Positions 31,287-64,000 of a stretch of DNA of 64,000 bases are shown piece by piece. The stretch is from Akkermansia muciniphila. Lineage in GTDB: Bacteria > Verrucomicrobiota > Verrucomicrobiia > Limisphaerales > SIAT01. Position 1 is the stretch's first letter, and each line of letters opens with the position of its first letter. The translations under genes and the position numbers were made by a program. The stretch covers positions 81,822 to 145,821 of the forward strand of contig CAMDJP010000001.1 of the NCBI GenBank assembly GCA_945900775.1, written 5' to 3'. Below the pieces are notes generated by a model. The model was not told the origin of the DNA. It saw only the letters and a list, made by a program, of their open reading frames with translations, and searched no databases.

Positions 31287-31363
31287 GCGCCTGTAGCTCA
31301 GCTGGATAGAGCATCAGCCTTCTAAGCTGACGGTCGCGCGTTCGACTCGCGCCAGGCGCACCA
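31287..31363 (+). tRNA. tRNA-Arg (anticodon UCU), CCA encoded
   Basis: Hand-folded cloverleaf. Acceptor GCGCCUG/CAGGCGC, D arm GCUC-AGCUGGAUA-GAGC, anticodon arm UCAGC-CUUCUAA-GCUGA, variable loop CGGUC, T arm GCGCG-UUCGACU-CGCGC, then discriminator A and CCA. Confidence 0.95.
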
Positions 31364-51759: not shown

Positions 51760-52026
51760 AGCTTTAGCCGGTCCGCCGGCTCGTTCTTTGCCAGTCCGGC
51801 AACGGTTTTAACCCTGCCACGTTCGTGTATCGAAACAAAGTCCTTGAACCGTATTAAATAATACGGGGCCTTGACTTCGACCATCGGCCGTCAGGCCTTG
51901 ATTGGACTTCGAAAGTCGTCGATTGGGCCCCACCTTGTTCCTAAGCGTTCAAAGGAACTGTTTTCCCACGGCGTTACGGTGGGGTTATCTTTAAAACCGC
52001 TCCGGCTTTGCCGGGGCGGTTTTTTT
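51760..52026 (+). ncRNA. Candidate structured RNA of unknown family: either a stand-alone sRNA or a terminator/antiterminator leader of rarA
   Basis: The 372-nt gap contains only short junk ORFs. The element has a 5' hairpin at 51766-51781, a hand-traced 43-bp long-range helix (51796-51849 with 51947-52005), an apical tRNA-like module, and a terminal intrinsic terminator. Ends are approximate. Confidence 0.45.
51997..52026 (+). terminator. Strong rho-independent terminator 37 nt upstream of rarA
   Basis: CCGCUCCGG-CUUUG-CCGGGGCGG forms a 9-bp stem (one G.U) at 51997-52019, followed by UUUUUUU at 52020-52026. Confidence 0.8.
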
Positions 52027-61297: not shown

Positions 61298-61699
61298 TCA
61301 CTCATGCAACGGTTCACGCCCCGCATAGCCCGTATCGAGCTCATGCCAGTGGGTAATATCATCCTCATCTTTTTCCCAGCAAAGGAAAACCTCGCGCCCA
61401 CCGATGACAGCTGGAAAATCGACCAACCCCCGCTCCAAATCCTTCACCTCTATTTCACGACGCTGAAACTCGTCCATCAACTGCTTGAACTTCGAGAGAG
61501 TGATGACCTGCCGATTCGCCGCCTCGCCGCCGACGTCACGCCCGCCGGTCAGCAACTTCGCAAGCGTTGCATCGTTCTGCTCAACGCGCTGGCGGAGTTG
61601 CTCAAGTTGCTCGAGCCATTCGCGCAACTGCGGCAAGATGGCGCGTGCTTCAGAAACGGTGTAGTGGATGCGGAATCGGCTGGCCATGGAACGCATCAT
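61298..61699 (-). CDS. DUF2203-family protein
   Basis: 133 aa from the ATG at 61699, which overlaps the TPR gene stop codon (ATGA). Sequence features FRIHYTVSEARAILPQLREWLEQL...IEVKDLERGLVDFPAVIGGREVFLCWEKDEDDITHWHELDTGYAGREPL. Confidence 0.75.
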   Translation of the reverse strand: MMRSMASRFRIHYTVSEARAILPQLREWLEQLEQLRQRVEQNDATLAKLLTGGRDVGGEAANRQVITLSKFKQLMDEFQRREIEVKDLERGLVDFPAVIGGREVFLCWEKDEDDITHWHELDTGYAGREPLHE

Positions 61700-63375
61700 T
61701 TCGGCAGCGCATCCAGCTTGTTCTGGACTGCTACGTTGACTTCGATAGCGAGGGATTTGCGCCAGTGCTCGCGAGCCTTGCTTGACTGTTTTAGAGCGAA
61801 AAAAATGTCCGCGAGATGGTCGTGCAACGTAGCGTCCGGTTCCTTCAGGTACTTGAGTGCGCGAAGCTGCCAGTCGAGCGCCTCCCGCGGCTTGCCGAGC
61901 TTGAAATAGACCCACGCCATGCTGTCGAGGAAAGCAGCATTGGTCGGTTCGGCTTTCACGGCCTTTTCAATCATTACTTTCGCTTCCGTCAGACGCTCAC
62001 CACGCTCGACCCACATGTAGCCGAGATAGTTGAGGGCCTCGCTGAAATCGGGCGACTGCTTGAGCGCTAGCAAGAAGTACTTCTCCGCCTCCACGATGTT
62101 TTTGCTGCGCTCTAACGTCGCGCCCATCTGGAAATGGAATTGCGGCGTGAGCCGCTGCGGCTCGGTAGCCCGTGCATAAGACTCTGCGGCAGTGAGGTGA
62201 CGCAGCGCTTTGGAATAATCCTTGAGACGCGACTGCGCCAACGAAGAATAGAACTCCAAGATGAAGCCCGCTCGGAATCGCGCGCGCGCCTTGTCCAGCG
62301 TGGCAACCGCTTCCTGCGGCTTGTCCAGGGCGAGTTGGATGCTAGCCAATTCGTGGTAGGCGGTCTCCATTTCGGGATCGAGCAGCACGGCTTTGCCGAA
62401 GAACTCTGCAGATCGATCCAATTGTTTCTCGTCGGCGCTGATGAGGCCCATGAGATAGTTCGCTTGAGCATTGGCAGGGAAATCGCGGAGGAGCTCTTGG
62501 AGTTGCTCGGCAGCCTTCTTACGGTTACCCAGCTGAAGGTACAGCCCTATCAATCGTTCTCGGACCTGCGGGTTCGTGGGGAAAAGCGCCTGCACGCGGG
62601 CGTAAGCTTCGGCCGCCTGCGCAAGTTCACCGATGCCACTGAAGACCTCTCCCATCCGCTGCAACACCGTGGCAGTGGCGTTGTTCAAACGCCGGGCTTC
62701 GGTCAAAAGGATAAGAATTTGCGGACGCTGCCGCTCCATCTCTGCTGGGCGCGCGCGTGTAATCGAAAGGTAAAGCTCCGCGAGGCTCGTGTAGAAAGCG
62801 GCGTCGCCCCCCTTCTGCTGCGCCGCCTTCACCAGCACCTTCAACGCCTCGGGCAACCGCTCATTCTGAAGGTATATCTGGACGAGATTCTGATACGCCT
62901 GCAGCAGCTTCGGGTTCTTCTGCAGAGCGGAGTCACTCGCGAGGATGGCTAATTCCTGCTTACCGACCTGCGTGTAAGCCACGCCCAGCAGCGCGTAAAG
63001 GCTCGCCGACGCGTTCGGATTTCCCGTCGCCTGGATGAGAAGCCTGATAGCGCGATCACTATCCTTTTGGAGGATTAAGCGCCGGGCAACCTCGACCACC
63101 ACCGACTCGTTACCGGCATCAGCCATGGCTGCCTGATAGAATTCCTCCTGCGCCTTGGCTTGCTCATTTCGGAGTTCGTAGCTGACGCCCGCAGCGAAAT
63201 GAGCCATCGCCTGAATGCGTCGTTCCAGATTCTCGGCGTCGCGGTTCGGGGCAACCTCGATCGGTTGGACCGGTTTGAACTTTGCGAGATACGCTGCCTC
63301 GTCGGTCGCACAGCCCGCAAGCAGCAATGCCCCAGCGAGCGAGACGGCCCAGATGGTGGATTGGTTGAGTCGCAT
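61696..63375 (-). CDS. TPR-repeat lipoprotein
   Basis: The ATG at 63375 gives MRLNQSTIWAVSLAGALLLAGC (lipobox). The remainder is tandem TPR-like helical repeats. Confidence 0.8.
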   Translation of the reverse strand: MRLNQSTIWAVSLAGALLLAGCATDEAAYLAKFKPVQPIEVAPNRDAENLERRIQAMAHFAAGVSYELRNEQAKAQEEFYQAAMADAGNESVVVEVARRLILQKDSDRAIRLLIQATGNPNASASLYALLGVAYTQVGKQELAILASDSALQKNPKLLQAYQNLVQIYLQNERLPEALKVLVKAAQQKGGDAAFYTSLAELYLSITRARPAEMERQRPQILILLTEARRLNNATATVLQRMGEVFSGIGELAQAAEAYARVQALFPTNPQVRERLIGLYLQLGNRKKAAEQLQELLRDFPANAQANYLMGLISADEKQLDRSAEFFGKAVLLDPEMETAYHELASIQLALDKPQEAVATLDKARARFRAGFILEFYSSLAQSRLKDYSKALRHLTAAESYARATEPQRLTPQFHFQMGATLERSKNIVEAEKYFLLALKQSPDFSEALNYLGYMWVERGERLTEAKVMIEKAVKAEPTNAAFLDSMAWVYFKLGKPREALDWQLRALKYLKEPDATLHDHLADIFFALKQSSKAREHWRKSLAIEVNVAVQNKLDALPK

Positions 63376-63437
63376 AAGGAGAACACACGCGCAGCAACCC
63401 GCTGCGCGTGGCTCCAAAGGAGTGGCGAGGCGCCAGG

Positions 63438-63540
63438 CTACTTCTGCCAGGTGCGCTTCTTGTGCCGGTTAGCACGAAGCTTCTTCCGACGCTTGTGTTT
63501 GTTGATTTTCGCTTTCCGGCGTTTCTTCAGTGAACCCATA
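63438..63540 (-). pseudogene. bS22-like (AURKAIP1/COX24-type) ultra-basic mini-ORF, reading frame interrupted by one extra base
   Basis: From the ATG at 63540 the frame reads [23 protein letters not shown] (stop codon 63469-63471). Skipping one G in AAGAAGGCTT gives [33 protein letters not shown] (stop codon 63438-63440). The ORF is below the track's size cutoff. Confidence 0.4.
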
Positions 63541-63563
63541 GTGTGTTTTCTGTTAACGGACGC

Positions 63564-64000
63564 TCAGTATACCACCTTGTTCAAGGGGTACTCAATGATT
63601 CCTTCCGCGCCGGCGGCCTTGAGCTGCGGAATGATTTCTCGGACGATGTGCTCGTCGATAATTGTCTCCACCGCCACCCAGCCCTTTTGGCTTAGGTTGG
63701 AGATGGTTGGATTGCGAAGCGCGGGCAACGTAGCCAGCAGGTTCGCCAGATTCTTCTCGGCGATGTTCAGTTTCAGGCCGACCTTCGCCTCGGCGTCGAG
63801 AGCCCCCTTCAAGAGCATGGCGATGGTCTCGATTTTCTTTCGCTTCCAAGAATTCTTCCAAGCGTCGCGGTTGGCGATCAGCCGCGGCGTCGAGCTGAGC
63901 AGCGTCTCCACGATGCGCAGGTTGTTCGCGCGGAGGGAGGAACCAGTCTCCGTCACGTCCACAATCGCGTCGACCAACTCGTGCGCCTTCACTTCGGTGG
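63564..64000 (-). CDS. hisG: ATP phosphoribosyltransferase, 3' part (gene continues beyond the right edge)
   Basis: [39 protein letters not shown], and a C-terminal regulatory-domain-like region ending EYPLNKVVY. The frame stays open to position 64000. Confidence 0.9.

Follow-up and report, generated by a model that had tools for sequence, protein, structure and literature searches.

The window, as the whole 64,000-nucleotide stretch of DNA analysed is called here, carries a small ORF on the minus strand at positions 63438..63539, referred to below as the bS22 ORF. The ORF list, the translation and a script agreed that it comprises 102 nt, i.e. 33 codons plus a stop codon in one unbroken frame, which opens with ATG at 63539-63537 and closes with TAG at 63440-63438; the surrounding minus-strand region reads ...cacacactATGGGTTCACTGAAGAAACGCCGGAAAGCGAAAATCAACAAACACAAGCGTCGGAAGAAGCTTCGTGCTAACCGGCACAAGAAGCGCACCTGGCAGAAGTAG. 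The product has 33 residues, a mass of 4196 Da and a pI of 12.0, and 18 of the 33 residues (55%) are Lys or Arg. Immediately upstream on the same strand, the ORF list places the 3'-terminal portion of hisG (ATP phosphoribosyltransferase; 63564..63992), a gene that continues beyond the end of the window. Pfam HisG and HisG_C domains were found in the full-length hisG genes of relatives, i.e. the syntenic genes in eight long contigs (L001-L008). An A/C-rich spacer of 24 nt (GCGTCCGTTAACAGAAAACACACT; 63540..63563, minus strand) separates the stop codon of hisG (63566-63564) from the ATG of bS22. A TPR-repeat gene (61696..63375, minus strand) follows downstream, and its counterparts in L001-L008 gave TPR matches in Pfam. 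Its ATG at 63375 opens a product beginning with MRLNQSTIWAVSLAGALLLAGC..., a lipoprotein-like signal with Cys. The ORF list starts the same gene at a TTG at 63417, inside a terminator-like hairpin described below, but the start called in the identical contig L005, position 4165, equals window position 63375. The real start of the TPR gene is thus likely the ATG at 63375 and not the TTG at 63417.

No Shine-Dalgarno-like motif was present in the 24-nt spacer. Among the relatives described below, 115 of 118 were likewise without an SD-like tetramer before bS22, and their leaders were G-poor. Because an SD is missing from most neighboring genes of the contig as well, the absence is a property of the organism and not of the bS22 gene, and it was rejected as a special bS22 feature. 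A consensus scan yielded a sigma-70-like promoter match (TTGAGT, 18 nt, TG-TATACT) at 63566..63595 on the minus strand, in the last hisG codons; one match was found against 0.1 expected in shuffles, and the leader would be ~20 nt long. We regard it as a candidate promoter and a weak lead, the conservation of which is uninterpretable, since the C-terminal codons of hisG constrain the same letters. Consensus scanning also found the terminator-like hairpin CACGCGCAGC-GGGTT-GCTGCGCGTG followed by TGTTCTCCTT (63386..63410, minus strand). This GC-rich hairpin of 10 bp with a T-rich tail, read from 63410 to 63386, is located between the stop codon of bS22 and the ATG of the TPR gene (63375), in an intergenic stretch of 62 nt with a folding energy of -32.4 kcal/mol (z = -3.1). 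For relatives, which fall into an MGS subtype (MGSLKKRRK...) like the window peptide and an MGN subtype (MGNLKKKRR...), the 70 nt after the stop codon gave mean z values of -1.6 (MGS) and -3.0 (MGN) compared with 0.0 for control windows. A strong downstream hairpin was more frequent in the MGN type (79% at z < -2), and a textbook terminator follows bS22 in Oleiharenicola lentus (L076). The hairpin 3' of bS22 may, to judge from these folds, act as a terminator. An Rfam search of 63200-63700 with E values up to 1 returned nothing, i.e. no known leader or riboswitch. Elsewhere in the window, Rfam identified a 6S/SsrS RNA at 51808-51989 on the plus strand, with 67.5 bits against a gathering score of 46.4, as well as one tRNA at 31287-31360, also on the plus strand, both of which are unrelated to bS22.

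The window peptide was compared with family models and with proteins of known structure. Pfam PF08213 (COX24_C) matched it with E = 9.2e-5 and 22.7 bits, 0.3 bit short of the gathering score of 23, and none of ten shuffled peptides matched this model. With the equivalog model NCBIfam NF047430 (ribo_bS22), a score of 15.5 bits was obtained, and the cut-off of 34 bits was not reached. Upon searching all PDB chain sequences with the single peptide, only 7JIL_5, 8FMW_V (Borrelia bS22), 9I5V_10 (labeled AURKAIP1/COX24) and mycobacterial bS22 were matched, the F. johnsoniae bS22 (7JIL_5) with E = 0.007. A profile (A2) built from 17 Verrucomicrobiota variants retrieved ten PDB matches, all of them bS22 or mitochondrial mS38; the best was again the bS22 of F. 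johnsoniae (7JIL), with E = 4.4e-5 and a co-linear alignment over residues 1-29. As short Lys/Arg-rich peptides are prone to spurious similarity, composition-preserving shuffle controls were run. Smith-Waterman z values were 8.4 for the F. johnsoniae chain, 7.2 for that of Borrelia and 7.0 for 9I5V, with none of 5000 shuffles reaching the score, and 4.7 for mycobacterial bS22, where three of 5000 shuffles did so. AF2, run on the single sequence, predicted one helix over residues 4-32 with a mean pLDDT of 93.9, a generic property and as such weak evidence. The gene also has the form of known bS22 genes, which are stand-alone, uninterrupted ORFs of about 28-33 codons (33 in the window), and its product shares their extreme basicity (more than half Lys/Arg, pI of at least 12).

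The shortfall in the two curated models was put into perspective by scoring known family members. Mycobacterial bS22 reached 62.6 bits with ribo_bS22 and 46.2 bits with COX24_C. The F. johnsoniae and Borrelia proteins, both verified by cryo-EM, matched neither model, and the 9I5V chain, also cryo-EM verified, did not match ribo_bS22 and gave 11.7 bits with COX24_C. The sister MGN subtype scored 18.8 bits with ribo_bS22 (cut-off 34), and its 27.5 bits with COX24_C passed the threshold of 23; the corresponding values for the window peptide, of the MGS type, are the 15.5 and 22.7 bits given above. Because verified Bacteroidota and Borrelia bS22 proteins score below the window peptide, its near-miss is uninformative on membership. 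Both curated models are geared to the type found in Actinobacteria and mitochondria, and the window peptide is filed under the broader COX24_C/bS22 family rather than under the narrow NF047430 equivalog; the name in use at NCBI is likewise a domain-level one.

The best sequence matches to the window peptide are the Bacteroidota proteins, i.e. F. johnsoniae bS22 (Fjoh_1533; 7JIL chain 5) and 9I5V_10. They share with it the core KKR..K...HKR.K..(A)NRHKK, the extreme basic charge and the helical prediction; for F. johnsoniae bS22, a pI of 12.7 has been given (PMC7797042). In contrast, Bacteroidota bS22 has 30 residues, starts with MPS or MPN and ends after HKKK, whereas the window peptide has 33 residues, starts with MGS and carries an additional RTWQK tail with a Trp. 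F. johnsoniae bS22 has been observed in the ribosome (PMC7797042), whereas ribosome binding of the window peptide is predicted by homology. The tail (residues 29-33; window 63438-63452, minus strand) is absent from the bS22 of both Bacteroidota and Borrelia, where HKKK forms the C terminus. The protein of B. burgdorferi (bb0822; 8FMW chain V), which was verified by cryo-EM, has the pattern KR...KI..HKR.KK.R.NRHKK in common with the window peptide (z = 7.2). It differs in having 28 residues in the model, a GUG start and no RTWQK tail, and consists of Lys and Arg to 61% (PMC10618245). Mycobacterial bS22 (M. smegmatis and M. tuberculosis; 5O5J, 5ZEB and others) resembles the window peptide in its 33 residues, its MGS start and its basic pattern, but is less similar in sequence (z = 4.7; profile E = 1.3), and the central HKR.K..ANRHKK motif of the window peptide is of the Bacteroidota/Borrelia type and unlike the mycobacterial one. 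The C-terminal helix of mitochondrial mS38 (AURKAIP1/Cox24) belongs to the same Pfam family, and the profile matched the mS38 chains 8A22_BC, 6XYW_BB, 5AJ4_An and 9EVS_c. Unlike the window peptide, mS38 is eukaryotic and organellar and mostly longer (72-137 residues in the matched chains, with one of 31), with the basic helix at its C terminus. If anything, then, the Verrucomicrobiota sequences appear to link two bS22 types, combining the mycobacterial length, MGS start and COX24_C match with the Bacteroidota/Borrelia core.

Coding constraint was evaluated in an alignment of nine bS22 loci including that of the window. Over all pairs, the codons differed by 418 synonymous and no non-synonymous changes. 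Although up to 19 of 99 nucleotides differed between loci, change was strictly periodic with three bases: 25 of the 26 variable columns were third positions, one was a synonymous first position (Leu) and none was a second position. The flanks of the nine loci had diverged completely and could not be aligned. For one of the loci, L005, identity to the window was 100% across 4.5 kb, and the two are probably one contig; at the DNA level, the others were about 70-77% identical to the window, where alignable at all. Synonymous-only differences between unalignable flanks show that the amino acid sequence is under very strong purifying selection. The absolute conservation of the peptide at ~25-30% DNA divergence would fit a peptide with every side chain facing rRNA.

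On the strength of these sequence comparisons, we consider it highly probable that a Verrucomicrobiota bacterium here encodes ribosomal protein bS22 (COX24_C/AURKAIP1/mS38 family) in an intact gene of the expressed type. The family, including the AURKAIP1/COX24 label, had been guessed in the earlier note, and the guess was borne out by the Pfam, PDB, profile and shuffle-control searches as well as by the name given at NCBI. The exact sequence is recorded there (e.g. HAM73104.1) as "AURKAIP1/COX24 domain-containing protein" of Verrucomicrobiota, on 362 contigs. The gene is thus already known by its family label and is a normal member of a known ribosomal protein family.

Only one other reading retains some weight, although we think it unlikely: the gene could encode a conserved basic COX24_C peptide that is not a stoichiometric ribosomal protein but, for instance, an assembly or hibernation factor, a nucleic acid-binding protein or a toxin- or antimicrobial-like peptide. 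It is homology from which ribosome binding of the Verrucomicrobiota bS22 is deduced, and the gene is located outside a ribosomal protein operon, with hisG and a TPR lipoprotein gene as its neighbors. A match to the YonT toxin model was also obtained, but it was at noise level (E = 2.6) and far below the cut-off of 45 bits. Every match in the PDB, on the other hand, was a ribosome-bound bS22 or mS38. The verified bS22 genes Fjoh_1533 (PMC7797042) and bb0822 (PMC10618245) are likewise small and unannotated or called "hypothetical", the latter having been missed by annotation. Finally, an identical peptide encoded by DNA that is only about 70-77% identical fits a peptide contacting rRNA.

The distribution of the gene agreed with its assignment to bS22. 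An exact-sequence look-up found the identical peptide in 818 blocks of the assembly collection. In all eight long contigs L001-L008, hisG was followed by the 33-aa gene and this by the TPR gene, usually with a DUF2203 gene next. Relatives were collected by scanning genome contigs with a degenerate DNA pattern that encodes the last eleven residues, and at least 119 species-representative genomes, nearly all of them Verrucomicrobiota, proved positive, among them Opitutae/Opitutaceae, Lacunisphaera, Oleiharenicola lentus, Geminisphaera colitermitum TAV2, Akkermansia, Limisphaerales and Pedosphaera. The invariance of the C-terminal tail among the 119 loci found in this way follows from the construction of the pattern; the RTWQ tail was also present in P0017, P0021, P0066, P0096 and P0105, which had been found independently. 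Genomic context separated the two subtypes in the genome-contig loci (L009-L127). hisG was directly upstream in 50 of the 51 MGS loci with enough upstream sequence and in none of 56 MGN loci, which mostly bear the label Opitutae or Opitutaceae. An exhaustive search of representatives gave 244 matches at E <= 0.001. bS22 appears to be universal in Verrucomicrobiota. A gene of the Verrucomicrobiota type was also seen in MAGs labeled Bifidobacteriaceae, Bifidobacterium, Methylomirabilota, Saccharimonadales or Rubrivivax (L044, L048, L067, L090, L091, L120); these are probably mis-binned contigs or mislabeled MAGs, and L048 is the same contig as L008, with the synteny of hisG, bS22 and the TPR gene.

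The integrity of the reading frame deserves separate treatment. The earlier note had described a 33-codon, ultra-basic ORF on the minus strand, flanked by hisG and the TPR gene and ending in a stop codon at 63438-63440; this ORF is indeed present, but the note had taken it to be interrupted by a single extra nucleotide. There is none. The minus strand in the middle of the ORF reads ...CGT CGG AAG AAG CTT CGT GCT AAC CGG..., so that AAG-AAG is followed by CTT, and a script check found AAGAAGCTT and not AAGAAGGCTT in the ORF. The plus strand over 63475-63490 is CGAAGCTTCTTCCGAC, and the letters at 63480-63481, supposed to form a C doublet, are CT. The inserted G, which is absent from the sequence, had put the start coordinate off by one and created a spurious stop. 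The ATG assigned to 63540 starts at 63539 (63540-63538 reads TAT), the span of 103 nt from 63438 to 63540 included one imagined base, and the residues ASC followed by a stop at 63471-63469 reflect an out-of-frame TAA within GCT-AAC. The 33-aa peptide that had been obtained by "repairing" the frame is exactly the true product of the intact frame. No pair of overlapping partial frames that would have to be joined by a 1-nt shift, as expected for a +1 frameshift or a frameshifted pseudogene, exists at the locus; a single frame encodes the full product. The window thus holds an intact, ordinary bS22 gene, and the supposed frameshift was a misreading.

The relatives led to the same result. As the proposed shift site lies upstream of the DNA pattern used for their detection, an in-frame N-terminal half is a fair test of a frameshift. 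In all 118 testable loci, this half was found in frame with the pattern and exactly 22 codons 5' of it, and the product always had 33 residues; L014 was left out because the gene was clipped by the edge of the locus. A frameshift at the proposed site occurred in none of the 118 Verrucomicrobiota loci. Intact single-frame orthologues, which the earlier note had wished to see sought between hisG and the TPR gene, are accordingly there, and they lend no support to a break. The four explanations offered for an extra base, i.e. an assembly indel, a pseudogene, a 23-aa variant and +1 recoding at AAG-AAG-G, do not apply, because no extra nucleotide is left to be explained. A single metagenomic representative (P0149) among the 244 matches is frameshifted near its C terminus, but at a different site, and with the ORF being exactly 102 nt long in the window and a single frame in the identical contig L005 and in every testable relative, we assign a broken ORF a negligible probability.

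Equally negligible is a chance ORF in an intergenic spacer that gives rise to no product, a reading to which the missing Shine-Dalgarno sequence might lend itself, as might the fact that 33-codon ORFs are common by chance and one alone is not significant in 64 kb; it is refuted by the 418:0 ratio of synonymous to non-synonymous differences, the third-position periodicity, the unalignable flanks and a family similarity that exceeds composition, and genuine neighboring genes have no SD either.

Gene-calling errors were widespread among the matches. Most of the 150 representatives listed, out of 244, contained the same peptide with a spurious N-terminal extension introduced by gene callers, and gene-caller products of 42-153 aa (P0002-P0151) bore the bS22 peptide at their C terminus. 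In loci of Opitutae, extraction from the first ATG produced frames as long as 367 aa, because the upstream frame is open in these GC-rich genomes. The proteins P0016, P0044, P0068, P0093, P0109, P0116 and P0147 are extended at the C terminus. Readthrough or recoding was considered for them and rejected, as they are probably gene-calling or assembly artefacts. P0068 (61 aa) runs past ...RTWQK into SVSYTHLDVYKRQ. We take this tail to be a translated Nextera adapter, and if so, it would represent adapter contamination in a public assembly.

If the homology holds for function as well, the role of the peptide may be drawn from its counterparts. In Borrelia, a 16S rRNA pocket made up of h2, h27, h44 and h45 harbors bS22 as a basic helix, which also touches H68 of 23S rRNA (PMC10618245). 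The bS22 of F. johnsoniae is situated between helices h44 and h45, where it makes contact with H70 (PMC7797042). Deletion of bS22 from M. smegmatis raises the susceptibility to kanamycin via h44 (PMC10081302). Mitochondrial ribosomes have mS38 in the analogous pocket, and the corresponding protein of eukaryotic cytosolic ribosomes is eL41 (PMC10618245). The 4.2-kDa peptide would, by homology, insert as an α-helix into the 16S h2/h27/h44/h45 pocket beside the decoding center. From this pocket it would reach 23S rRNA (H68/H70) at the subunit interface, where it could neutralize phosphate charge and fine-tune the geometry of h44. Transcription of the gene probably occurs jointly with hisG or starts at a promoter within the hisG 3' end, and translation probably proceeds without a Shine-Dalgarno sequence, as for its neighbors. 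For the MGS class, linkage to the hisG transcription unit could, speculatively, tie the supply of bS22 to histidine or amino acid status and lead to a condition-dependent composition of the ribosome.

With no recoding and no pseudogene left to explain, the case is mainly a matter of correct annotation. The small size of bS22 genes often leads gene callers astray, and curated models recognize only the actinobacterial type, with the consequence that non-actinobacterial bS22 remains unnamed or is named only at the domain level. In the literature searched, no paper linked bS22 with Verrucomicrobiota, the two co-occurrences of the terms being due to unrelated strain names, and no structure or proteome of a Verrucomicrobiota ribosome was found. 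The apparent universality of bS22 in this phylum, reported by no paper in the literature searched, is mildly new, as is the fact that this type escapes the curated bS22 models. We consider it reasonably likely, on present sequence evidence, that Verrucomicrobiota ribosomes carry a bS22 whose sequence bridges the two known bacterial types, which would add this phylum to Actinobacteria, Bacteroidota and Spirochaetes. The presence of the gene throughout Verrucomicrobiota, including Akkermansia, suggests that bS22 is distributed more widely than the three phyla with structures, and such a wider distribution bears on the geometry of the aminoglycoside site in Verrucomicrobiota ribosomes. If the bridging holds true, the relation of "structural homologue" would turn into demonstrable sequence homology, in support of an ancient and widespread bS22/mS38 lineage.
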